Shown here piece after piece: positions 1,729-29,757 of a stretch of 41,137 bases of DNA; within the stretch, counting starts at the first letter, position 1, and each line of letters begins with the position of its first letter. A program made the position numbers and the translations under genes. The stretch lies in the UHGV virus genome UHGV-0139000. One strand, 5' to 3'. The DNA comes from a virus. Below the pieces are notes generated by a model that was given only the letters and a program-made list of their open reading frames with translations, had not been told where the DNA came from and did no database searches.

Positions 1729-2043
1729 CTAGAAAATCTGCATAAGGGGGAGAAATCCCCCACCTGTAATAACATAACTACTAAAATTAACACCTTGTTC
1801 GCACAACTCCTCCACCAGCACGACAAGATGCCGCACACTGCGCCCCAGCCGATCCAGCTTCCAGACAACCAGAGTGTCACCTGCCGATAATGTCCTGAGC
1901 AGTTTTTTCAGTCCCGGCCTTTCGGACTTTGTACCGCTTATCTTGTCTTCAAAAAACAGCTCGCATCCTGCACAGTTCAGCGCATTACGTTGTAGATCTG
2001 TGTTCTGGTCATTTGTTGACACACGTACATAGCCAATAAGCAT
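1729..2043 (-). pseudogene. truncated Gin/Pin/Hin-family serine DNA invertase (N-terminal catalytic part only)
   Basis: MLIGYVRVSTNDQNTDLQRNAL...DTLVVWKLDRLGRS matches the invertase catalytic domain as I recall it; similarity ends after about 88 residues (near 1780) and the C-terminal HTH domain is missing. Confidence 0.8.
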
Positions 2044-2069
2044 AGTGGATCCCTCTGACAAAAGCAGGA

Positions 2070-2501
2070 ATGATGCCATTTGCTCGTTATTTCTGCATTT
2101 TCATAAACGTTGGTTTGGGAGAAGCGGCAACGAGGAACGTCGGAACGGATACCGGGCAAGTACCAGATATGAGTAGTTTTACAACGGGGCACTCTGGAGC
2201 AGCAGACTGGCCGAATCCTAAATCTGGATGGAGTAAGGGGCCGGATGGGGTAATTACACAATGGGGTATTTTCGGTTTCCCCGTTGGACAGACAGGGACG
2301 AATGTTGTTTTCCCGCTACCTTTCCCCGCGCGGGTCGAATCAATTACACTGACAATGGCAGATATCCAGGAGTCTCTGCTTTCTCCAGCAACCATGCCTG
2401 CTTATGGAGTTAACTCAACTGGTACTTCAAGAACGGGTTTTACAGCCCGTATGTCAGGCGCCGGTGGGTTTAATCTTTGCTATATAGCGAAAGGGAGATA
2501 A
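2070..2501 (+). CDS. alternative (currently unexpressed) tail-fibre C-terminal cassette inside the invertible segment
   Basis: Reading frame runs through gix-like site L encoding ...NVGLGE, the same peptide the active fibre encodes across site R; followed directly by a Tfa gene. The true coding part begins at the crossover (about 2110). Confidence 0.55.
   Translation: MMPFARYFCIFINVGLGEAATRNVGTDTGQVPDMSSFTTGHSGAADWPNPKSGWSKGPDGVITQWGIFGFPVGQTGTNVVFPLPFPARVESITLTMADIQESLLSPATMPAYGVNSTGTSRTGFTARMSGAGGFNLCYIAKGR
2097..2124. other. gix/hix-like recombination site L of the invertible segment
   Basis: ttggtttgggagaag (2110..2124) is the exact reverse complement of cttctcccaaaccaa at 3948..3962; the site is an imperfect 26-bp palindrome of the AAACC-NN-GGTTT type. 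Confidence 0.65.
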
Positions 2502-2505
2502 CAGA

Positions 2506-2949
2506 ATGAATAAAGTTAAAAGTGTTTACAGCCCGTCCGAAAATGCAATCTACAACGCAGCGCTATATGAAAGTTATATCAAGGAGGGGACATGGCCGCA
2601 GGATGGTATTGAAATCAGCGATGAGGATGCTGTCAGATTTAATGGGGGAAATAAGCCAACAGGAAAAATGCTGGGAATGGTTTCAGGGACCCTTGCATGG
2701 GTTGATGAGCCGCCGCTTTCACCAGAACAGAAAATATCAGATGCAGAAAACATGAAAGCCACATTTCGTGCAAAAGCTGACAGTGAAATATCCTGGCGTC
2801 AGGATGCTGTTGATGCTGGTATCGCAACTGATGAAGAAACTTCAACTCTCACCCAATGGAAGAAATACCGTGTGCTGCTGATGCGTGTTGATACGTCAAC
2901 AGCACCCGATATTGAATGGCCTACGCCTCCGGCAGCTCAGGCCAGATGA
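2506..2949 (+). CDS. tail fibre assembly protein (alternate copy, Tfa')
   Basis: 147 aa; C-terminus TSTAPDIEWPTPP mirrors the C-terminus of the convergent Tfa at 2921..3514; sits after the alternative fibre cassette. Confidence 0.7.
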   Translation: MNKVKSVYSPSENAIYNAALYESYIKEGTWPQDGIEISDEDAVRFNGGNKPTGKMLGMVSGTLAWVDEPPLSPEQKISDAENMKATFRAKADSEISWRQDAVDAGIATDEETSTLTQWKKYRVLLMRVDTSTAPDIEWPTPPAAQAR

Positions 2950-3514
2950 CATCAGGCGCGGTGCTGGTATCTGTTGCCGTCACCGCGTCAATGTAATCCA
3001 GCACGACGTTAAGTCGGGTTGTTTCTGCCTGCGTCAGTTTCCGCCCGGCCTGTAATTTCAGCTGAATCAGACTAATGGAAGCCATTGCTGCATCAATCAG
3101 TGACTGGCGCTGTGCTTCTGCCGCGTCTACTGCGGCACTGTGTTGTGCCTCAGTGTCTGTCACCCATTTCTCACCATCCCATTTATCGTATGGCGTTAAC
3201 GGTGAAATCGTGACATAACCGTCTTTGATGGCACCGATATAATCCACTGTAACAGCTGCGCCATTTTCAGTTGAGTAAACGGTCTCATTGCGATGGTCTT
3301 CTTCATGGCTCCATCCCTTACCCGTAAATACTGCCACTTTTCCCGGAATGTTTTCGCCCGGGTCAATACCAGTGGAACAGGCGGGTATACTTACGCCAGT
3401 ATTAATATATTCATCAGACCAGCCGGTATATTCATACGTTACTGCATTATAATAAAAACAACGCATATCGCCCGGCACTGTAGCCAGCCCATTTTCATCA
3501 AAAACAGGTTTCAT
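2921..3514 (-). CDS. tail fibre assembly protein (Tfa, active orientation)
   Basis: 197 aa immediately downstream of the tail-fibre gene; C-terminus TSTAPDVIWPELP shared with the Tfa' copy. Confidence 0.7.
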   Translation of the reverse strand: MKPVFDENGLATVPGDMRCFYYNAVTYEYTGWSDEYINTGVSIPACSTGIDPGENIPGKVAVFTGKGWSHEEDHRNETVYSTENGAAVTVDYIGAIKDGYVTISPLTPYDKWDGEKWVTDTEAQHSAAVDAAEAQRQSLIDAAMASISLIQLKLQAGRKLTQAETTRLNVVLDYIDAVTATDTSTAPDVIWPELPEA

Positions 3515-4326
3515 TATTTAGCCCTCACCAGAAAGTTAAATGCAATATTTCGCGGTCTGACAGCAACAAAATTCACACCATCACCCACAGAGTTACTGGT
3601 GAAATTAAATCGTGAAAATCCTGGCTGATTTCCGGCGATGCCATCATGAAAGTTAATTGCGTGTCCCGCACCTTCGCCTACATTCCCGGCAAACTGAGAA
3701 AAGTTTGTAGCTGCCTGCCAGCTTAATAATTCGCGACCACCGTCTGCACCTCGCCCGTCATCCCAGATACGAATGAAATCACCGCGGGCTTCAGGTAATA
3801 CCAGCGAAGGAAATACTTTCGCCAGCACAGGATAATCAGTGGCAGAGAATTTCGCGCCGTTGAACTTCAAAAACACCATACTGGACCAGCTGTCGATTAC
3901 AGTATTTGGCATTGCAGCGGACGGCCAGAAGAACGGAACGCCAATAGCTGGAGCACCTTCTCCCAAACCAAGGTTTTCGAGAGCTGTTTTCACCGTGCCG
4001 TCCGATTTGATATCGCCAAACGGATTCTTGCGGCTCAGGTATTCAACAGCAAACCCCGATCCCAGCAATTCAACAAAACCGGGCAGATCACCATTATCAA
4101 GCACATCCCGTTGCGTTTTATCACTTACAAACTGGGCCAGAGCTGCAGCAATAAAGCTGGCCTGCCGAATAACCTTATTGACTTGCGCACTGGAGGCTTT
4201 CCCTGCTGTAAATCCAGATAAAAGCGCGGGCAACGCTTCCCATTCCTCCTGCGATATAACATTGGCATTTCGATCCGTTGCAAACGCTTTAAAGTCATTT
4301 TTCGCCATCAGAGTAATACTCCCCAT
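3514..4326 (-). CDS. tail fibre protein (constant N-terminal part plus currently joined variable C-terminal part)
   Basis: 270 aa; gix-like site R lies inside it and encodes [10 protein letters not shown]; downstream Tfa; preceded by baseplate genes. Confidence 0.7.
3948..3974. other. gix/hix-like recombination site R inside the tail-fibre gene
   Basis: ttctcccaaaccaaggttttcgagag: 26-bp imperfect palindrome; 15 bp identical in inverted orientation to site L. Confidence 0.65.
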
Positions 4327-4988
4327 GCTCCTACATCAAAACCACTGATGAATTCGTTATCCATATCAAAACCAAAAAATTTTGAGCCTTCCGATGGGGT
4401 TTCCACCGAAGGTGTTTCAATGCCACCCGCCCATACCCCGGCGGCTTTTACTGTGAGATACCCCTGTTTAATTGCCGCAATTAACTCACGCGATACATCT
4501 GAAATATCAGTATCAGGAAAGACCCAGACCGATATCGTCATGTCCTGGTTATCGACTATCTGCATTCGCAGCCCGGATCCTGCTGTTGCCGCGTCAAGAA
4601 TTGCCGGAAGCGAATCATTCCGTCCGTCCCAGTTATTAATCGCAATCTTCGCTTTAAGAATGACACGATAAGTTTCATCGCTGAGATACATGTATCCTGA
4701 ATCAGGATCGTATGGTCCCTGCCATACCCCCTGATCATATCCAAGCCCGTCGGTATCCCAGCTGAAATAGACACCTGAGATAGGCTGGCTGACAACACGG
4801 CTACGTCCGATCCACAATCCAAGGATGTCAAGTTGCACACCAACCGCAGAGTCAATATCAAATGCACTAATCAGCCCTCTGGTGGCAGCCGCAACATCAA
4901 TAAGTGGCCGGGTCATCAGATCAACATGCGCAAGAAATTTAGGTTTGGTGGCGTGGTAGTTCGTGATTAGTTCGGTGTATTTGCTCAT
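4308..4988 (-). CDS. baseplate/tail protein (P2 gpI / Mu gp48-like position)
   Basis: 226 aa between the baseplate J-like gene and the tail fibre; assignment by synteny. Confidence 0.5.
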
Positions 4989-6184
4989 GACTCCACCGTT
5001 ATAACGATATTTTTCGGGGTACAGGACGCAGATTCGTTGTATCTGATATCAATGTTTGATGACGACAAAGCCCCCGGGGATTTCCCAATCGTCAGTTCCT
5101 GAATATCGTAATAGCGTGCATTCCCGCCACTCACCACGCCAAGATTCGCCGGTGAGTAAATGCGACTTAAAAGGACCGAATCACCAATCATCAGACTATT
5201 GATATAGTCGGAAATAGCCTGCTGGATCTGCTGCCCTATCTGTGAGGTATAACCCGTAAAAACTTTTAATTTAATCAGGGCATAAACAGGCACATCACTG
5301 GAACGCGAGAATTTGATTACATGGGGATTGCCGTATTTATCCGGAACCGTAACGGATGTTGTACCGTGAGTGGCTGTCCCCTGGCCTTTATTCCCTCTGA
5401 TAGCCTGAGCAATATCCGTTACATCACCGCCATCCACAATTACAGCAACAGAGTGTGGCGGTAACCCGTTACCGTCCTCCGAACCAGTATCGTTTTCATA
5501 GAGTTTGTGGCGGGTTACACCGGTAACATTAGAAACAGCACCATCCAGTGCTTCAAATGGGGTTATTGATGGCAACGCAACACTTTGCGACTGGCGGATA
5601 CGTAACTCAGCGTCAGTTTCTGCCGGAGTGCCCACAGTGGCTGCAGCAGGATTGGTTACCGAAACCCAGCCACGGGTTGGCGTATTAATTTCAGTGATAG
5701 TTCCAGCCAGCGCCGCCACTGCACCACTGACGGAACATGTTGCGGTCACCATCACTGTACCATCCACGCCTACCACCACTGAAGCAGGCAAACGCCATAT
5801 CACATTATTACTGTCTTTCACGCTGCCATTAATGATGGTTGTTCCGGCAGTTCCTGTAAGAAGCAAATCAACCGTAGAGTTCGTCGCGCCTTTACGTGAA
5901 ATACCATTTATTTTCACGTTACAGGTCAGTGCAGCCCCATAGCCGGTTGCCGGTGAAAAACAGTTGTAGACAGTTATCGCCATATTATTGGCATCATGAA
6001 TCGCCAGCGCCATCAGAGCCACCATCTGGCCGTCTTTGCTATCCGGTTCGAGGTAGGCATCACTGCCATAAATCTGCTGAAAATAGCTAATCAGGGTGCT
6101 GAGTATCGTCTGATAATCAGGCGCACTGATCCCCTCCGCGGTTACCTTTGCAGATAAACCGAGAGAATCAAGGTTCAGAGCCAT
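4985..6184 (-). CDS. baseplate J-like protein
   Basis: 399 aa; position and size fit the P2 gpJ / Mu gp47 family; follows the gpW-like and gpV-like genes. Confidence 0.6.
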   Translation of the reverse strand: MALNLDSLGLSAKVTAEGISAPDYQTILSTLISYFQQIYGSDAYLEPDSKDGQMVALMALAIHDANNMAITVYNCFSPATGYGAALTCNVKINGISRKGATNSTVDLLLTGTAGTTIINGSVKDSNNVIWRLPASVVVGVDGTVMVTATCSVSGAVAALAGTITEINTPTRGWVSVTNPAAATVGTPAETDAELRIRQSQSVALPSITPFEALDGAVSNVTGVTRHKLYENDTGSEDGNGLPPHSVAVIVDGGDVTDIAQAIRGNKGQGTATHGTTSVTVPDKYGNPHVIKFSRSSDVPVYALIKLKVFTGYTSQIGQQIQQAISDYINSLMIGDSVLLSRIYSPANLGVVSGGNARYYDIQELTIGKSPGALSSSNIDIRYNESASCTPKNIVITVES

Positions 6185-6537
6185 TACGCCTCCGATGTAA
6201 CAGTCGTTATTCCATAAAGAGTGTCGATTTCAGCGGAAAACATGACACGTCGGGTCGTGGTATCCACCGTCGTATTGAAATAGAGGATTGATTTAACGCC
6301 CTGCGTTTCCAGAATGCGCTTACGGATCGCCAGGTTGTAGGTTTCCGGCTTCTGCCTGCCCAGCACGGACTGGATCCATGGAGTCCCTTCGGTGGTGTCG
6401 AGAAACCATTGCCCATACCACAATTCGAATCGCGTTTTTACCGCCTGCGCCACGGCCTCCGGTGAGTTAATCAGCCAGGTGTCATCACCGCTGCCAAAGG
6501 TGTAATCGCCATCGGCGTCTTCACGTCTGTATCGCAT
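6184..6537 (-). CDS. small baseplate protein (gpW / gp25 / gp46-like position)
   Basis: 117 aa between the spike and J-like genes; synteny only. Confidence 0.45.
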   Translation of the reverse strand: MRYRREDADGDYTFGSGDDTWLINSPEAVAQAVKTRFELWYGQWFLDTTEGTPWIQSVLGRQKPETYNLAIRKRILETQGVKSILYFNTTVDTTTRRVMFSAEIDTLYGITTVTSEA

Positions 6538-7289
6538 CAGTTTACTCCGTCGGTATTGCTTCCACCGCGCTGAACACCACCATGAGTGTGCGTATCATCG
6601 ATTAGCTTGCCGTTAGCCTTCACGCTACCCAAAAACTCAACAGCACCAGTGATTTTTGAAGCCACACCAGAAACCACAGACCCCACCATGCCCCCCATCC
6701 AGGTTAACAGGCCATGAATGGTTACTTTCTCAGAAAAATCAGCCAGAGGGGCAACCACATCAAGGCCCCCCGGAGCGACAATTTTAATTTTCCTGGTATC
6801 AGGATTAAGCTCAAAATAGGTGCTGCCGTCATCACTACGCAACTGTGTGGCACTGGTATTAATACCGCTAATCTTCCTTGCCTGCGACTGGGGACCGACA
6901 ATACAAAACGCATCCGATAAATCATGCATTCTGTCATCGACCGGCTCCTGTATCCCGCCACTCTGCCACCAGAAATCAATACAACGATCGGCAAAAATCA
7001 CCAAACATTCATCACCGGCTTTAACTGGAAAAGTCAACGTACAGCCTCCGCCGCGCGGAAATACCACTGGCACATCCACCAGCAGGGGTAATGTCGTCGA
7101 CTGGTTGATTCCATTTGAGTCCGGCTCATAGCCTTTAATCGCAGGTTGAACAACCACTGTTACCGTGTCCGGATCAAATGACTGGACGATGCCGGGCATA
7201 GAAACACGCAGCGCCGACATGACAGAGCCAGCAAGTCTTACATCGGCCTGTTCTTTGCTACCAAGTTGAGCGCTTAAAGAAACGGGCAT
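6537..7289 (-). CDS. baseplate spike / assembly protein V-like
   Basis: 250 aa; N-terminal region (MPGIVQSFDPDTVTVVVQP...LPLLVDVPVVFPRGGG) resembles the gpV OB-fold spike family. Confidence 0.6.
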   Translation of the reverse strand: MPVSLSAQLGSKEQADVRLAGSVMSALRVSMPGIVQSFDPDTVTVVVQPAIKGYEPDSNGINQSTTLPLLVDVPVVFPRGGGCTLTFPVKAGDECLVIFADRCIDFWWQSGGIQEPVDDRMHDLSDAFCIVGPQSQARKISGINTSATQLRSDDGSTYFELNPDTRKIKIVAPGGLDVVAPLADFSEKVTIHGLLTWMGGMVGSVVSGVASKITGAVEFLGSVKANGKLIDDTHTHGGVQRGGSNTDGVN

Positions 7290-7306
7290 TCATATGTCTC
7301 CAGAAA

Positions 7307-7332
7307 GTAAAAAACCCGCCGGGTGGCGGGTT
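7307..7332 (-). terminator. rho-independent terminator downstream of the 79-aa membrane-protein gene
   Basis: Hairpin aacccgcc-gggt-ggcgggtt (7313..7332) followed on the minus strand by a run of six T (plus-strand A run 7309..7314). Confidence 0.6.
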
Positions 7333-7348
7333 CATTATTGAAGTTTCA

Positions 7349-7588
7349 TTACTGCTTGTTTGCTTCTAACGCTTCAGCTATTCGGCGAAGATACTCATTG
7401 TTTTTAAATGAAACCATGATGCACTCAAAGAATATTCGGCAAAATACAGCACATAACAAAAGCACTAAAGCGCCAGCAGCCTTCCCATTAACAAACGTTA
7501 TAATGGCGGCAACAACCAGAAGTAACATTGTGATGCCATACAGAACGTTGATGATTTTTGGAGTTATTAATTTATCAAATCCGAACAT
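7349..7588 (-). CDS. small two-helix membrane protein (79 aa), moron
   Basis: Two hydrophobic helices (ITMLLLVVAAIITFV, ALVLLLCAVFCRIFF); AT-rich; own terminator; inserted between baseplate genes. Confidence 0.55.
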   Translation of the reverse strand: MFGFDKLITPKIINVLYGITMLLLVVAAIITFVNGKAAGALVLLLCAVFCRIFFECIMVSFKNNEYLRRIAEALEANKQ

Positions 7589-7727
7589 GCGACAAATTCC
7601 TTATCGTGAAAGTAGAAGTATCACATTATAATTACGGGTGATTAATCAACAATCTTTTTGCATGGAAAGGAACCGATGATTTTCGGCGCATCCATGCTGT
7701 TCTGCAGAAGCTGGACGCAAATGTAAT

Positions 7728-8063
7728 TCACTTCACCTTCCGGCAATCATACGTCCAGAACTCCCGAGGCTCGTCCATATTTTTGCGGATAACTTCAACG
7801 TTGAGGATCGCTTTTTTGTTTCGTTTGATGTAGTCCATACCTAACCAACGTCCAGTATTAGGATCAGGTAACATCCATTGCATCATGACATTATCGAAAT
7901 CGTCTTTTTGTTTCAAAAAGGTCATTTTTTGTGTTTCTGGCTTTTGACCATTGATGTGCATGAGGCCATCATTACCAGCATCAAAGCGGAATGGTCCGCA
8001 CTGCGTTGCCGCCGAAACTGTTAACGGCAGGGCCAAGAATAAACAAAAAAATACTTTTTTCAC
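7728..8063 (-). CDS. secreted/periplasmic small protein (111 aa) with signal peptide, moron
   Basis: N-terminal MKKVFFCLFLALPLTVSA signal-like sequence, two Cys in the mature part; AT-rich; stop overlaps the start of the upstream tail gene. Confidence 0.55.
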   Translation of the reverse strand: MKKVFFCLFLALPLTVSAATQCGPFRFDAGNDGLMHINGQKPETQKMTFLKQKDDFDNVMMQWMLPDPNTGRWLGMDYIKRNKKAILNVEVIRKNMDEPREFWTYDCRKVK

Positions 8064-9094
8064 TCTACATCTCCGACTTTGTCCAAAGTGCCTTTTGCCA
8101 ATAGTTCTTTGCCACCTTTAGCCAGGCAAAGCAGGTCCATATACCACGCCTGCCCTCGGGTGTCGCCAGTATAATCAATGCTGCCCACAATGTAATCACC
8201 GTCAGTATTAATGCTGGCAGGCTGTGACATGCCTGGCAGACCGTTAACGTAGAGATTACCGTCGCTTTCAGACTCATCCAGTCGTGCTGGCGATTTCGCT
8301 ACCTGGTCATTACTCAAAGAGGCACGGTATACAGATGCCTGATCCAGACGAATAAGCCCACCGAGCTTAATATTTGGATTAATCAGGCATCTGACATTTA
8401 CGCCAGCTCCCATCGTCTGCTGTGGCATACCGATAAGCCCGGTGTTAGCATTCAACACCGTAGCAACACCAATATATTTATCTTCAGGAACAATATTTAC
8501 CAGATTATTTTCATACCACCAGTTAGCCTTACACTGCCCTGCGATATGATTCATCAACCTTGATGTGTTTTGATAAACAACGCGCCCCCGGGGAAATACC
8601 GTTTCAGGCATGTCAGGAACTGCGCCGGATTCGATGCCATATGGTTCGAATGATTTCATACCCAGACTGAAAAGATCTCTGTACTTCCAGCCAGCTGCCA
8701 CTGTGGTTTTCACACTTGCGTTCAGGTGGCCTTCCCAGCTGTCAATACACTGCAACATGATCCAACTGTCTGTGGCATTATCTTTACCAGTGACAGTAAA
8801 ACGGATATCTCCATTGAATATCATACCAACGTTTTCATCAGGATAATTACCTGCTGCATCCGGTTGCCCCTTGTATCCGGCAATAACCTGTATACGCGAA
8901 AACTCCTTCTGCATAATCCGGTTCTGAGTGGTAGGAGACAGGTTATAAACCTTAAAATTTCCAACGAATCCATTAAATATGGTCGCAGGCATTTTCTGAA
9001 TATTGAAAGTGACTTTAAGCTCAGAAAATTTTATCCCGTCGCCCTTATCATCAACAAGTAATAATTCAAAGTGACGCATCCAGTTTTTCGACAT
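8060..9094 (-). CDS. tail/baseplate hub protein (putative)
   Basis: 344 aa between tape measure and spike genes; synteny only. Confidence 0.45.
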   Translation of the reverse strand: MSKNWMRHFELLLVDDKGDGIKFSELKVTFNIQKMPATIFNGFVGNFKVYNLSPTTQNRIMQKEFSRIQVIAGYKGQPDAAGNYPDENVGMIFNGDIRFTVTGKDNATDSWIMLQCIDSWEGHLNASVKTTVAAGWKYRDLFSLGMKSFEPYGIESGAVPDMPETVFPRGRVVYQNTSRLMNHIAGQCKANWWYENNLVNIVPEDKYIGVATVLNANTGLIGMPQQTMGAGVNVRCLINPNIKLGGLIRLDQASVYRASLSNDQVAKSPARLDESESDGNLYVNGLPGMSQPASINTDGDYIVGSIDYTGDTRGQAWYMDLLCLAKGGKELLAKGTLDKVGDVE

Positions 9095-9096
9095 TG

Positions 9097-9399
9097 TTAC
9101 TCCGTGAAAACATAGAGGTGTGAGAGCGTTCCAAGATCGAATTGCGTCGGATTCTCCTGCCCTGCCACGTCGCAGAGCACCACCAGAGAAAAACCCAGAT
9201 CCATATATCGATACTGTGCCAGCAGGTCAGCCCCAGTAATCATCGGTATACCTGATATAATGGCGGAGCCATTGCTGTCAGCAAGATCCAGAACCCAGTA
9301 CTCGCCTCGCCAGATGACAGACAGGTGATAAACCGAACCGTTAATTGTGGTGGCAAAAGTCTGATTGTCAGCAACCAGTGGGATTTCTACGGCTTGCAT
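9097..9399 (-). CDS. tail protein, hypothetical (100 aa)
   Basis: Tightly packed within the tail operon. Confidence 0.4.
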   Translation of the reverse strand: MQAVEIPLVADNQTFATTINGSVYHLSVIWRGEYWVLDLADSNGSAIISGIPMITGADLLAQYRYMDLGFSLVVLCDVAGQENPTQFDLGTLSHLYVFTE

Positions 9400-9402
9400 G
9401 AA

Positions 9403-10053
9403 TCACCTTCCCAGAAATAAATTGCTCAAATACCCATCAACAGTGGAGATACCTTCTTGCGCCATCTGTGGCAGCGATTTCAGAATGGAATTATTCGGCA
9501 GCACCGTTGTTTTGGTGCCTGTATTCTGCACAGCAGACGTTCCGACTCCCTCGGTCATATTGTTTTTCGGGGCAACCCTGACTGACTGCGTGGAGGTAAT
9601 AATTACTTCCCTGAGGGTAAATGTCGCCAGAAGCACATTTTCACTACTCTTATCGGTCGTAACCTCCAGCGTTTTTATCAACATATTGTTGTAAATACGC
9701 TTGCCGGTTGTCACATCGAAAGGAATACGATTCCGCTGCAGGTTAAGCAGTTCCTGATACAGTTCTTTCGGGCTCAGCCCCAGTAAACTGGTAGCCGTCA
9801 GGTTACTGGCAAAATCAAGCAGCGATCCGCCTCCGGAAAAACCGGTTTCCATCACAACCTCAGAAGGGCGCCTGAATGCGTGTTCTGATATATAACCAGC
9901 GCCCTCACCACTGGCACCAGCATTCGTGGGCTGTTCAACCGGATGTTCCGTAATTTCCAGGGCGTCAGTGTGCTTTTCGGTAATAACCACATCAGGAATA
10001 ATGATTCCTATTGAGCGGGTTCGCTGCTGCAGTAAAACAGATAAAAAGTCCAT
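9403..10053 (-). CDS. tail protein, hypothetical (216 aa), directly downstream of tape measure
   Basis: Start overlaps the tape-measure stop; synteny only. Confidence 0.4.
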   Translation of the reverse strand: MDFLSVLLQQRTRSIGIIIPDVVITEKHTDALEITEHPVEQPTNAGASGEGAGYISEHAFRRPSEVVMETGFSGGGSLLDFASNLTATSLLGLSPKELYQELLNLQRNRIPFDVTTGKRIYNNMLIKTLEVTTDKSSENVLLATFTLREVIITSTQSVRVAPKNNMTEGVGTSAVQNTGTKTTVLPNNSILKSLPQMAQEGISTVDGYLSNLFLGR

Positions 10054-12059
10054 TACGCAGGTCCTTTCAATTGCTGTACCGCCCTGGCATTTACAGCCCC
10101 CTGCTTGTCAGCGATCAGATTAGCCGCCTCCTGAGGGTTGTTAACTCCATGAACATTTATAACAGTCTGCTGGTTAAGGCTGCCAGCGGCGGCCTGATAC
10201 GCCAGCGGGCTGTTCCAGTTTGAATAACCTTCTTTGCGCGCCATCGACTGCATCAATGCTCCCATAGTCTGGGGATCTGTAAGATTCAATATTGCATTCG
10301 GTGATACTCCCATCCATTTCGCAACATCCTGTGCATACTTTTTCGGATCGTTGTTATCACCTGCCGGGGCCCAGGTACTGACAATATCCTGAATAGTCTG
10401 TAATGCTCGTCCGGTTGTTTTCCCGGTAAAGTAACGCATGAGCTGATTTTTCATCGCCTCCCAGCCCTCAAGAGCTGATTCGAAAAACCGGAACCCTTTA
10501 CCGCTCACCGGGCGAATGTTCCCGGGGTTATTGTTGCGATCAGCAAGAGTACCGCCGCCGGGGATGTCGGGCTGGACGTTGGAGCCATGCACTACACCGT
10601 TACTCTGTCCCTGCCGGATAACTTTACCGGGTCCCCCGTGCAACCAGTCCATCCACGCAGGCCATTCACGGACCTCACTGACATCCCTGCGTCCGATATC
10701 TGTTTTTATACCAATAGCAGCCAGCGTGTCGCCGATAATTCGCTTCGTATACCTCAGTGAAGATTTTGCGCTATCGGCAATATTTTCTCTGTCACTAACA
10801 ATATAGCCCGCGTAAAGCGCCCACAATTTAAGCCAGGGTGGGACCGGTAAACCTGATATTTTTCCGAAAGCCCCCAGAACCTTGGATACCCAGACACCCG
10901 CGATGAATGTACCGAGGATTTCCAGTGCATTTTGCCAGCCGCCAACACCATCTTTTAGTTCCAGAAGGTGATCACGAAGCCAGGTGATCGCATCCTTCGC
11001 TTTATCTATTGCCGGTTGCCATTTTTCCCAGTCGATAAGACTGTTACCGCCTTCTTTCCATGTTTTGTAGTCTTCCCACAAGAGACCGAGAGCCACGATC
11101 AGACCGGTAATCAGCCCTATAGGTGACATCCAGAAAGTAGAGTTAAGTATCCGCATGGCGACAACCAGACCGCCGATAACCTCTATCAGGGTTTTCGTTT
11201 CGGCATCCAGTTTCCCCCACCACTCGATGATATCGCCGACACCATCGACTATCCGAAATGCTACCCGCCCGACTATCTCACCCAGCCAGAGGATCCCCTT
11301 TATGACCTTTGTGATGGTGACTTCAATTTTGGGAAAATTTTCAATTATCTTTTTGCGCAGGTTATCAATCTGCCCCGCCAGTCCGTCCGCAAGATTCGAT
11401 CCGATTTTGTCCCGCGCCATCCCGGCCATTTCACCGAGCGATTTCAGCGAGGTCATAAACCGGTTTGACGATAAGGCAGCCTGATCGGCATTAAATCCGA
11501 TCGCTTTCACCATTTCTGAATACTGAGCGCTGAACTGCCCCACACCACGACGCATGGCCATCAGGGTATTTTCGTCAATGCCCAGCATCTGCGCATACTG
11601 GTTAGCCCGGTAATACGGCATACCGCTGAGCTTCTGGCCTACACCTGTAAAAATAGCGGCCATGTCACGCATGTTGCCGCTGGCATCACGGGTCTGTACG
11701 CCCAGGCGATTCAGAAAGCCTTCTGCTCCGGGATTGTTACGAATAAACCGGGAGAGGCTTTCCAGAGAAGATCGCGCAGCGTCCACACTGCCGCCAACCT
11801 GCGAAACCGCATAGCCAATAGACTGAATTCCCTGGACTGTCGCGCCGGTGCGCTGTGACGCCCAGTAAAGATTATCCAGGCCGGAGGCGATCTTAGCCGT
11901 GAAGGCCACCACGGACAGCGCAGCTCCTTCAACGGCCAGTCCCATTTTGATGACATTTGCAGTTGTACCGGCGAGGACAGAACCGAACTTTTTCGCTCCT
12001 GCATCATCCACACTGAAGCCAAGCGAGACGAGGAAATCTTTAATAGTTTCAGCGTTCAT
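10053..12059 (-). CDS. tail tape measure protein
   Basis: About 668 aa with Ala/Gly-rich helical segments and a hydrophobic central region; downstream of sheath, tube and chaperone genes. ATG at 12059 with upstream GGAGAGAGG preferred over the TTG at 12080. Confidence 0.75.
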   Translation of the reverse strand: MNAETIKDFLVSLGFSVDDAGAKKFGSVLAGTTANVIKMGLAVEGAALSVVAFTAKIASGLDNLYWASQRTGATVQGIQSIGYAVSQVGGSVDAARSSLESLSRFIRNNPGAEGFLNRLGVQTRDASGNMRDMAAIFTGVGQKLSGMPYYRANQYAQMLGIDENTLMAMRRGVGQFSAQYSEMVKAIGFNADQAALSSNRFMTSLKSLGEMAGMARDKIGSNLADGLAGQIDNLRKKIIENFPKIEVTITKVIKGILWLGEIVGRVAFRIVDGVGDIIEWWGKLDAETKTLIEVIGGLVVAMRILNSTFWMSPIGLITGLIVALGLLWEDYKTWKEGGNSLIDWEKWQPAIDKAKDAITWLRDHLLELKDGVGGWQNALEILGTFIAGVWVSKVLGAFGKISGLPVPPWLKLWALYAGYIVSDRENIADSAKSSLRYTKRIIGDTLAAIGIKTDIGRRDVSEVREWPAWMDWLHGGPGKVIRQGQSNGVVHGSNVQPDIPGGGTLADRNNNPGNIRPVSGKGFRFFESALEGWEAMKNQLMRYFTGKTTGRALQTIQDIVSTWAPAGDNNDPKKYAQDVAKWMGVSPNAILNLTDPQTMGALMQSMARKEGYSNWNSPLAYQAAAGSLNQQTVINVHGVNNPQEAANLIADKQGAVNARAVQQLKGPA

Positions 12060-12291
12060 TATCCTCTCTCCATTTCTCAATGCGCCGCTGGTTATCTGCT
12101 TTTACCGCCAGATGGTCATTCAAGAGAGCAATGTCATACAAATCGACAGAGCCATCTTTAAGTGCTGTATAGGGAATTAACCCGGCGTCAACCGGATTGA
12201 GAAGGTAGGACAGCCCGTCCGGCAGGCTGTTAAACGTCAGCCCTGTTGCAGGCTCTGCGTCGTGCTGGTAAGGGGTGTAGGCAAAAAATTT
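12049..12291 (-). other. -1 frameshift extension of the tail assembly chaperone (G/GT or E/E' type)
   Basis: Minus-strand run AAATTTTTT (12283..12291) 15 codons before the chaperone stop; the -1 frame is then open for about 79 codons and ends at TGA 12049..12051, overlapping the tape-measure ATG. Confidence 0.5.
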
Positions 12292-25899: not shown

Positions 25900-26322
25900 T
25901 TATGCCGCCGAGCAGCTCCTACGCAAAGTCCTGATAGCCTGAGGCTTTGACTGAACCGACTGATCCATTTCGAGCACCACATCCAGCATGGCTAAGCAAC
26001 CGTCAATAAATCCCTCTGCCGCCTGAAGCCTCTTCAGAACGTGGGTGTGAGATACGCCGAGCTTCTCACCCATCGCCCTCACGGGCATGGCCTGGACGTA
26101 ATGCCACTCAAGGAGCGTGCACAGATACGGATCTTTTTTCTTCAGGCAGCTCATAGCGGAGTTGATGATAAGACCGTCATTGTCACTGCATTTCAGCCTT
26201 CCAGACTGCGTCGCGGGTAGCAGATTCTTAAACCCGGCTGCAACAGGAGGAAAGTAGACGCTACCACCTTCACTCGCTGCCCAGCCACCCCAGCGCTCTA
26301 AAACCTGTTGAATATTACGCAT
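25900..26322 (-). CDS. late-gene antitermination protein Q-like
   Basis: 140 aa, N-terminus MRNIQQVLERWGGWAA resembles enterobacterial prophage Q-type antiterminators as I recall them; sits upstream of late leader, terminators and lysis genes. Confidence 0.55.
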   Translation of the reverse strand: MRNIQQVLERWGGWAASEGGSVYFPPVAAGFKNLLPATQSGRLKCSDNDGLIINSAMSCLKKKDPYLCTLLEWHYVQAMPVRAMGEKLGVSHTHVLKRLQAAEGFIDGCLAMLDVVLEMDQSVQSKPQAIRTLRRSCSAA

Positions 26323-29013: not shown

Positions 29014-29133
29014 TGCTTTCACCTCATACAATTTTAGTGGTATTTAGCAACAACAAACGAGGTTTGTCAAATACAACAAAAATTGTTTTTAATGTGGGTA
29101 TACACATTAATACAACCCAGAAGGACTAATCCC
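29014..29133. promoter_or_regulatory. divergent cro/cI promoter-operator region
   Basis: Contains the operator-like dyad atacaa-N6-ttgttt (29071..29088), palindrome caaac-gag-gtttg (29054..29066) and an extra atacaa half-site (29110..29115). Confidence 0.55.
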
Positions 29134-29757
29134 ATGTCTCTCGCAGCCCGTTTTAAAGCACGTCGTTTGGAATTAGGAATGACTCAAGTGGAAGTAGCGA
29201 ATTCTGCAGGGGTTAGCCAACAATCCATAGAATCCATCGAAAGTGGACGAACCAGAAAGCCACGCAATCTTCTGGATCTGGCTAAGGCCTTGAAATGTAG
29301 CCCAGACTGGCTACTGAACGGTAAAAATATTATGCCTCTCGCGGAGATAAGTACCAGACGCATACCTATATTAAGTTACGTTCAGGCAGGAGAGCTTACA
29401 GAAGCAAGAGACATAACAGATCTGACAGGGGAATTTGAATATATTTTGGCAGACTCTGACATTCCAGAAACATGCTTCGCATTACGTATTGATGGCGACA
29501 GCATGCAACCAGAGTTTAAAGAAGGAGACATTGTTATCATCGATCCTGATCTATGTCCTGCACCAGGGGAGTTTGTTGTCGCCAAAAACGACGGTCACGA
29601 AGCTACATTTAAAAAATACCGTCCATTAGGAATCGGCATCGACGACTTTGAATTAATCCCCCTAAATCCTGATTACCCTATTTTTCGTAGTGCAGATATG
29701 AACTTACAGATCATAGGTGTAATGATCGAACACCGTATTTACCGCCGTAAACGTTAG
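29134..29757 (+). CDS. CI-type repressor with LexA-like S24 autopeptidase domain
   Basis: N-terminal HTH (MTQVEVANSAGVSQQSIESIESG); Ala-Gly cleavage site in SYVQAGEL; C-terminal domain with GDSM (Ser) and FKKY (Lys); AGGA 8 nt before the ATG. Confidence 0.85.
   Translation: MSLAARFKARRLELGMTQVEVANSAGVSQQSIESIESGRTRKPRNLLDLAKALKCSPDWLLNGKNIMPLAEISTRRIPILSYVQAGELTEARDITDLTGEFEYILADSDIPETCFALRIDGDSMQPEFKEGDIVIIDPDLCPAPGEFVVAKNDGHEATFKKYRPLGIGIDDFELIPLNPDYPIFRSADMNLQIIGVMIEHRIYRRKR

Follow-up and report, generated by a model that had tools for sequence, protein, structure and literature searches.

Two separately acquired genes for predicted envelope proteins occupy an accessory slot at the baseplate hub-spike junction of an E. 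coli prophage

In phage HK97, genome entry is blocked by gp15, a small inner-membrane protein encoded by a moron in the tail operon (Cumby et al. 2012, summarised in PMC3594210). T4 Spackle (gp61.3), a small periplasmic protein with a disulfide bond, inhibits the tail-spike lysozyme (PMC7677548), and P2 and P4 prophages have hotspots of anti-phage systems (Rousset et al. 2022, PMC9122126). These are the closest described counterparts of the locus analysed here, a two-gene stretch between the baseplate hub and central spike genes of the UHGV virus genome UHGV-0139000. This genome, whose complete sequence of 41,137 nucleotides is called the window below, is a lambdoid-regulated E. coli prophage with a contractile tail. 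The first gene of the stretch, ORF-A, encodes a predicted exported protein whose family we call famA; the second, ORF-B, encodes a predicted inner-membrane protein of the family DUF4282. Judged by comparison of related loci, the hub-spike junction is an accessory-gene and defence hotspot. We propose that it houses two independent passengers, both of which would act at the envelope against incoming phages, and we put the probability of this reading at about 0.6. The features on which the argument turns are the following.

8060-9094, minus strand: baseplate hub, 344 aa, upstream anchor of the slot (Pfam E217_GP41, 1.5e-07; PHROG 196 'baseplate hub', 9e-80)
7307-8063, minus strand: the two-gene stretch under study
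7728-8063, minus strand: ORF-A ('famA'), 111-aa precursor with a predicted signal peptide in codons 1-18 (8010-8063)
7349-7588, minus strand: ORF-B, predicted 79-aa DUF4282 inner-membrane hairpin (PF14110, 1.2e-10; PHROG 12129)
7306-7333, minus strand: predicted intrinsic terminator, a 9-bp stem (7312-7333) followed by a U-run
6537-7289, minus strand: baseplate central spike, 250 aa, downstream anchor of the slot (PF18352, 1.5e-44, plus GpV Apex motif; RefSeq 'membrane-puncturing spike protein')

Like HK97 gp15, ORF-B is a small predicted inner-membrane protein encoded by an AT-shifted add-on in the tail operon of a lambdoid-regulated prophage. It adjoins tail-tip or tape-measure genes, is flanked by a promoter-like site and a terminator signal and has chromosomal homologues outside prophages. 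However, gp15 belongs to the YebO family and ORF-B to DUF4282, with no YebO-family match in a Pfam scan of ORF-B. ORF-B is, moreover, predicted to form a two-helix hairpin and is encoded between the hub and spike genes of a contractile-tailed phage, and its part in exclusion is something that we infer. FamA resembles T4 Spackle in being small, predicted to be exported by the Sec pathway, predicted to hold one disulfide and genetically tied to tail-tip functions, and the present phage also has a tail-borne peptidoglycan hydrolase, in the C-terminus of its tape measure. Yet Spackle is an alpha-helical bundle encoded by an early gene of a virulent phage, whereas famA is a predicted 8-stranded beta-barrel whose gene is coupled to a late gene of a temperate one; the two share neither homology nor fold, and the presence of famA is not tied to any particular hydrolase domain.

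The slot itself compares with the P2 and P4 hotspots in being a fixed site between conserved phage genes, with diverse and mostly unannotated cargo that includes defence and toxin-antitoxin genes and is exchanged among related prophages. It differs from them by its position inside the baseplate operon of another phage lineage, in a lambdoid Q-regulated late operon, by the conserved terminator that bounds it and by the presence of famA as the first gene in most occupied cases. The insert is of the familiar prophage add-on (moron) type, in an accessory hotspot, and both protein families are uncharacterised. ORF-A and ORF-B each match PHROG families end to end (PHROG 3443 and PHROG 12129), but these families and DUF4282 (PF14110) are without functional annotation and membership says nothing on mechanism.

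The hub-spike junction as a cargo slot

Spike proteins were aligned, and loci were taken from two sources, species-representative genomes (80) and viral contigs (80). Hub and spike genes were located with profile hidden Markov models (HMMs) and the intervening open reading frames (ORFs) were listed; 73 of the species-level loci had both genes. In 22 of these 73 the hub abuts the spike gene, with 65 nt or less between them, which bears out the original prediction that the two genes interrupt otherwise contiguous baseplate genes and establishes that the stretch is an insertion. The 51 occupied slots comprise 35 with famA and 16 with other cargo only. FamA always stands directly after the hub gene; it is intact in 32 loci, including two lipoprotein-fused forms, and fragmentary in three, where it appears as decayed remains (L024, L034 and L074).

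The base composition of the insert also sets it apart, as had been claimed. The GC content of 7307-8063 is 0.407, at the 0.4th percentile of windows of the same size in the late region, and its AT content is the highest in the late operon. ORF-B has a GC content of 0.375 and ORF-A of 0.426, compared with 0.50 for the spike gene and 0.45-0.53 for the neighbours.

The ORFs found in the slot form 61 sequence clusters, some of which are possibly chance ORFs and most of which have no Pfam match. Those with a match include a YafO toxin, a T5orf172/MUG113 nuclease, a DUF2335 membrane protein and a P22-type antirepressor; a Phd/Fic pair and an Arc/Bro-N cluster are further cargo. PADLOC recognised a SNIPE/PD-lambda-1 protein (4.8e-83) and PDC-S42 (1.7e-36), and another cargo protein weakly resembles PycTM. 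Anti-phage and toxin genes (SNIPE/PD-lambda-1, PDC-S42, YafO and Phd/Fic) are therefore carried in this slot by relatives, in line with the expectation, drawn from tail modules of other phages, that such inserts encode exclusion or envelope-modifying proteins. The nuclease SNIPE resides in the membrane and cuts phage DNA as it is being injected (PMC13190303). A 409-aa homologue with the T5orf172 nuclease domain is encoded immediately downstream of famA in prophages of Erwinia, Pantoea and Dryocola (L031:3407-4636, L036:2830-4059 and L097:3637-4863).

Since the cargo is diverse and includes known defence systems, we regard the junction as a hotspot of the P2/P4 type (PMC9122126). Lying in a widespread Enterobacterales prophage lineage, it is an easily recognised slot that could yield candidate defence genes by 'guilt by location', as the P2 and P4 hotspots did. 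The main value of the locus would reside in this use of the hotspot and in the unusual hub-linked periplasmic protein that it holds.

The downstream edge of the slot is formed by the terminator. Its predicted free energy is -16.7 kcal/mol (z = -3.7), and none of 200 shuffled sequences folds as well. The original prediction was correct in calling this terminator strong, but not in assigning it to the insert as its own. The same hairpin, AACCCGC-loop-GCGGGTTTTTT, precedes the spike gene in 39 of the 51 occupied slots, with every type of cargo, and in 5 of the 22 empty ones. Across genera it is kept with variable loops and compensatory stem changes (AACCTGC/GCAGGTT and AAGCCGC/GCGGCTT). By this comparison the terminator is a conserved downstream boundary of the slot and not private to ORF-A and ORF-B. 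Rfam gave only a chance-level match on 7200-8200 (E = 0.9). Empty junctions that retain the hairpin only (L069, L076, L083, L086 and L091) have it about 30-61 nt upstream of the spike gene, either as the scar of lost cargo or as a pre-existing landing pad.

In lambdoid phages, Q-modified polymerase reads through terminators of this kind. A strong terminator would be tolerated inside an essential operon because the phage has a Q antiterminator, with read-through deduced from lambdoid Q biology. The slot would then be a clean example of how Q antitermination permits terminator-bounded cargo in such an operon.

Separate histories of the two genes

Although the stretch is an insertion, as the original prediction held, it does not behave as the single two-gene unit that it was taken to be. 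ORF-A and ORF-B occur together in only one of the 73 species-level loci, while famA is found alone or with other cargo in 34; when presence and absence were compared in relatives, a check that had been suggested beforehand, the two genes proved not to be carried as a pair. Other cargos seen with ORF-A number in the dozens, and in Salmonella one and the same famA protein precedes three different ones. ORF-B, which is present in 1 of 73 species-level and 17 of 69 viral-contig hub-spike slots, occurs without ORF-A in at least four other contexts.

The two genes also diverge differently. In E. coli viral contigs (L098-L177), two hub lineages are seen, with about 98% and about 50% identity to the hub of the window, while the spikes are about 90% identical in both. 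The identity of E. coli famA tracks the hub, at 100 or 73% with the 98% hubs versus about 30% with the 50% hubs. Across species, the Spearman coefficient of pairwise identities is 0.51 for famA and hub and 0.32 for hub and spike. The divergence of famA follows that of the hub, which indicates that famA belongs to the upstream module and that the mosaic joint lies downstream of it.

Other observations concern famA itself. In L101, L102, L104 and L105 both hub and spike are 98-99% identical to those of the window, but famA is only 72-73% identical, and partial megablast matches take in only the 3' 86-127 nt of the gene. Recombination within famA appears to be common.

The arrival of ORF-B has left a trace in the 139-nt gap between the two genes.

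7642-7716, minus strand: 75-nt 3' remnant of a second, diverged famA allele (ending ...VQLLQNSMDAPKIIGSFPCKKIVD and stop), read as a recombination scar that arrived with the ORF-B cassette

In prophages of the L123 type, which belong to the other hub lineage (as does the phage vB_EcoM-606R2), the equivalent of 7642-7716 is the end of an intact famA gene, with the same DUF4282 cassette behind it. Between 7716 and the start of ORF-B, the window has only two mismatches with these prophages, and megablast alignments with many E. coli genomes lose coverage at about 7716. The match of the remnant and the break in coverage indicate that the ORF-B cassette was imported by recombination, leaving a scar. 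These comparisons establish independent histories for the two genes.

The original prediction implied another view, in which ORF-A and ORF-B form one cooperating exclusion system with a periplasmic and an inner-membrane component, acquired and expressed jointly and closed by a terminator of its own. The genes are indeed adjacent and co-oriented, both products are predicted envelope proteins, and every surveyed hub-spike slot with a DUF4282 gene also has famA. There is a precedent in T4, where exclusion involves the periplasmic protein Sp and the membrane protein Imm. Such a system is nevertheless very improbable, given that one locus with both genes stands against 34 with famA and no ORF-B, that DUF4282 occurs in contexts devoid of famA and that the remnant of another famA allele between the genes shows their separate arrival. 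Furthermore, the terminator is common to all cargo types and the expression signals of the two genes differ.

For two independent passengers, we suggest the following course of events. Cargo would be exchanged by recombination between conserved flanks, namely the end of the hub gene or of famA upstream and the terminator and start of the spike gene downstream. FamA may be a long-time traveller with the hub module. The DUF4282 cassette would be a classical moron, with its promoter, ribosome-binding site, membrane-hairpin gene and terminator; it may have come from a prophage of the other hub lineage, the 75-nt piece of famA being what was left at the joint.

Predicted products and their possible action at the envelope

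The GTG start codon of ORF-A overlaps the stop codon of the hub gene (GTGA), with GGAG as ribosome-binding site 7 nt upstream. Its N-terminus, MKKVFFCLFLALPLTVSA/AT, is a textbook Sec signal, and the sole hydrophobic peak of the protein is at residues 2-20. The mature protein contains exactly two cysteines, C22 and C107, both invariant across 61 homologues, so that the description of ORF-A as a 111-aa signal-peptide protein with two cysteines stands. Throughout the family the signal peptide is kept in kind and not in sequence, being hydrophobic with AxA at its end, and the mature domain is strongly conserved. AlphaFold models famA as an 8-stranded barrel (pLDDT 87.8). We predict that famA is a periplasmic beta-barrel of about 11 kDa, with C22 and C107 joined in a disulfide that closes it.

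In Phytobacter and Enterobacter variants the famA domain forms the C-terminus of a lipoprotein of about 290 aa (L026:2831-3697, L077:3651-4541 and P0213). The lipobox of these fusions is independent evidence that the domain is placed outside the cytoplasm. Their N-terminal domain, of about 170 aa, has no Pfam match. The family is tiny: 1.84 billion proteins yielded 56 representative clusters, and all the contexts inspected lay in this tail module. Two long repetitive proteins retrieved by the profile search (P0247 and P0261) look like compositional or repeat matches and were set aside. The protein WP_000755137.1, a close relative whose gene is 99.7% identical in DNA, bears the RefSeq name 'STY1065/STY2022 family phage-derived protein'. 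Since hmmscan against NCBIfam release 20 returned nothing for either ORF, this name presumably comes from a rule that is not HMM-based.

ORF-B is preceded by two further signals.

7625-7652, minus strand: sigma-70 promoter-like site for ORF-B, TTGTTG (7647-7652), 16-nt spacer and TATAAT (7625-7630)
7597-7602, minus strand: Shine-Dalgarno-like AAGGAA, 8 nt upstream of the ORF-B ATG

The protein had been described as a 79-aa two-helix membrane protein, and both family assignment and structure prediction agree with this. It scores 42.2 bits against Pfam DUF4282 (cut-off 27), covering positions 2-85 of the 86 of the profile; the only other match in the Pfam scan is a weak, sub-threshold one to the host inner-membrane protein YbhQ. 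AlphaFold yields a helical hairpin with helices 10-33 and 37-78 (pLDDT 87.6). With two lysines and arginines in the N-terminus, one in the loop and four in the C-terminal tail, the predicted topology in the inner membrane is N-in/C-in. R51 and E55, in the second transmembrane segment (TM2), are invariant in the family, and the conserved tail KNNEYLRRI would be cytoplasmic in this topology. Signal-peptide and topology predictions thus agree in making both products envelope proteins, as anticipated.

These predicted locations bear on the idea that one or both proteins are virion or tail-assembly components of the baseplate. The genes do have baseplate genes on either side, and translation of famA is coupled to that of the hub. 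However, tails assemble in the cytoplasm, whereas the signal peptide or lipobox and the transmembrane hairpin place the proteins in the envelope; both genes are absent from many related and apparently intact tail modules, and there were no matches to structural-protein families. We give this idea next to no credence.

Expression from the prophage had been predicted for the insert as a whole; we find a candidate signal for ORF-B and none for ORF-A. The promoter-like site of ORF-B, identified in silico by consensus match, has a position weight matrix (PWM) score of 10.5, at the 99.99th percentile of window positions, and ends 36 nt before the ATG. Comparable sites lie upstream of DUF4282 genes in Klebsiella and Pantoea contexts (PWM 9.3 and 11.8), and these cassettes also end in terminators. 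ORF-A, in contrast, is translationally coupled to the hub gene. A candidate famA promoter in the 3' end of the hub gene (ATTACA-17-TATACT) was rejected: it encodes the conserved hub motif DG(V/D)YIV..I.YTGDTRGQ and persists in loci that have no famA. The Mann-Whitney p value of 0.006 obtained for this embedded site is confounded by phylogeny and was not accepted.

As defined by Juhala and Hendrix (as given in PMC3594210), a moron is extra DNA of deviating base composition with a promoter and a terminator, expressed from the repressed prophage. The insert is extra DNA relative to related phages and deviates in composition, and a terminator follows ORF-B, with none between ORF-A and ORF-B. ORF-B would fit the definition apart from expression in the lysogen, its promoter being an in silico call.

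As famA has no specific promoter and is coupled to hub translation, its expression from the repressed prophage is doubtful. The coupling to the hub gene suggests that famA is probably made together with the late operon. This leads to a serious rival, in which famA is not a host-protecting moron but a late periplasmic factor for the lytic cycle of the phage itself, giving for instance late protection from lysis-from-without or superinfection, modulating lysis, or masking an envelope component so that progeny are not lost on debris. Besides its mode of expression, the invariable first position of famA in the slot, a divergence that tracks the hub and the strong conservation of the mature domain speak for such a role. 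Yet famA is dispensable, since tail modules that look functional do without it at 22 empty junctions and at 16 with other cargo; decayed fragments of it exist, and it is AT-richer than its neighbours. We consider a purely lytic role of famA possible, though improbable.

The wider distribution of ORF-B informs two more alternatives. DUF4282 genes directly follow the tape-measure gene in a Klebsiella siphophage, a Salmonella prophage and the Edwardsiella phage GF-2; others are found near gtrABC in Pantoea prophage remnants and on a non-prophage Franconibacter chromosome. Both genes of the insert could be host-fitness morons acting on envelope physiology, stress tolerance or virulence, in the manner of lambda Bor and Lom. 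Host-fitness morons are well documented (PMC3594210), the Franconibacter homologues stand beside stress and regulatory genes, ORF-B has its weak similarity to YbhQ, and the calycin/avidin-like barrel of famA is a fold typical of small-ligand binders. This is unlikely in view of the recurrence of ORF-B beside tape-measure, hub and spike genes in three tail types, of the known anti-phage systems in the same slot and of the confinement of the tiny famA family to this tail module in the contexts inspected.

ORF-B might otherwise be a membrane-damaging effector (holin-like, an abortive-infection toxin or a lysis modulator) instead of an injection blocker. Its two transmembrane segments, with R51 and E55 inside the second, would suit oligomeric pores; small transmembrane effectors are common in defence systems, and the weak resemblance to PycTM is shown by another cargo of this same slot. 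However, ORF-B stands alone, with no sensor or antitoxin partner, and its promoter looks constitutive; the prophage already possesses a holin, and ORF-B is carried stably in 83 of 5426 complete E. coli genomes. An effector of this kind is quite unlikely.

Superinfection exclusion at the envelope is, by analogy with the systems described above, the likeliest role of both proteins. The timing of expression and the exclusion itself we infer as follows. Constitutive synthesis of ORF-B in the lysogen would start from its own promoter, and the terminator would keep the transcript out of the spike gene; in lytic growth, Q-modified RNA polymerase would ignore the slot terminator. From the inner membrane, ORF-B may block the step of genome injection that involves the tape measure and the tail-tip channel, like HK97 gp15. 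A block of genome injection is our best guess for ORF-B because it recurs beside the genes for tape measure, hub and spike and because the slot contains defence systems. FamA is best read, again by analogy, as a hub-coupled periplasmic factor acting on related incoming phages; it may bind a part of the tail tip in phages whose hub module is related, as T4 Spackle does with its target. If so, the DUF4282 and STY1065/STY2022 families would be assigned a function, that of preventing phages from entering through the envelope.

A more specific version would make famA a hub-linked self-exclusion or immunity factor of temperate contractile-tailed phages, a periplasmic barrel that recognises the tail tip (hub, spike or tape measure) of phages with the same hub module and neutralises it there. 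DUF4282 would be a portable inner-membrane injection blocker, moving among sites beside tape-measure or hub genes in unrelated tails, and the slot, with its 61 mostly unannotated ORF clusters, a rich and unexploited catalogue of anti-phage genes for the envelope and injection stages. Here the famA alleles would co-diversify with the hub, as in the two E. coli lineages (30% vs 50% identity). We hold this version to be doubtful.

Several results weigh against an action of both proteins on incoming phages. Neither ORF matches PADLOC-DB v2 at E values up to 1, searches of the literature for DUF4282, STY1065/STY2022 and the RefSeq accessions found nothing relevant, and searches of Protein Data Bank (PDB) sequences with both family profiles gave chance-level matches only. 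For famA, the fold is only generically calycin/avidin-like, and such barrels often bind small ligands; no promoter of its own is detectable, so that the protein is possibly not made in lysogens. The promoter call for ORF-B is a consensus match alone, its homologues on non-prophage chromosomes would allow a role in host physiology, and the DUF4282 gene of GF-2 adjoins the tape-measure gene without a gap, which means that the family is not always an independent transcription unit. Finally, the presence of famA is not correlated with the window-type hydrolase domain of the tape measure, which leaves a Spackle-like target unsupported. The possibility that famA inhibits the C-terminal hydrolase of the tape measure was rejected on the flat co-occurrence of the domain, found in 15 of 28 famA, 8 of 16 other-cargo and 7 of 22 empty loci.

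Setting of the slot in the prophage

The lambdoid regulation and the contractile tail of the prophage are apparent from the following genes. On the minus strand, the order from Q is Q, holin, terminase, head genes and tail genes.

29083-29757, plus strand: CI-like repressor
25900-26322, minus strand: late-gene antiterminator Q (PF06530 Phage_antitermQ, 5e-42)
10053-12080, minus strand: tape measure
9403-10053, minus strand: Dit-like protein
9097-9399, minus strand: plug
6184-6537, minus strand: sheath initiator
4985-6184, minus strand: baseplate J
4308-4988, minus strand: wedge

The C-terminus of the tape measure (10053-10670, the last 200 residues or so) matches the solved endolysin chain 7q47_A (1.2e-5) and Gp29 (9vvp_L, 1.2e-6), which indicates that the tail brings its own peptidoglycan hydrolase. 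Relatives have an SLT domain in place of this endolysin-like part.

Variation was also seen next to the slot. In Salmonella loci L179-L182 (around 6065-6306) there is an extra gap of about 240 nt between the spike and sheath-initiator genes, in which a 45-aa ORF was called in two of the four; this is possibly a second variable point, or else decay. L183 has no spike gene at all.

An ORF with a resolvase/invertase N-terminal domain (1729-2079, minus strand; PF00239, 1.5e-28) adjoins a plus-strand tail-fibre C-terminus (2070-2501) and a plus-strand assembly protein (2506-2949), which face the active minus-strand fibre (3514-4326) and its assembly protein (2921-3514). The segment 1729-4326 of the window looks like an invertible host-range switch of the Mu G-segment type.

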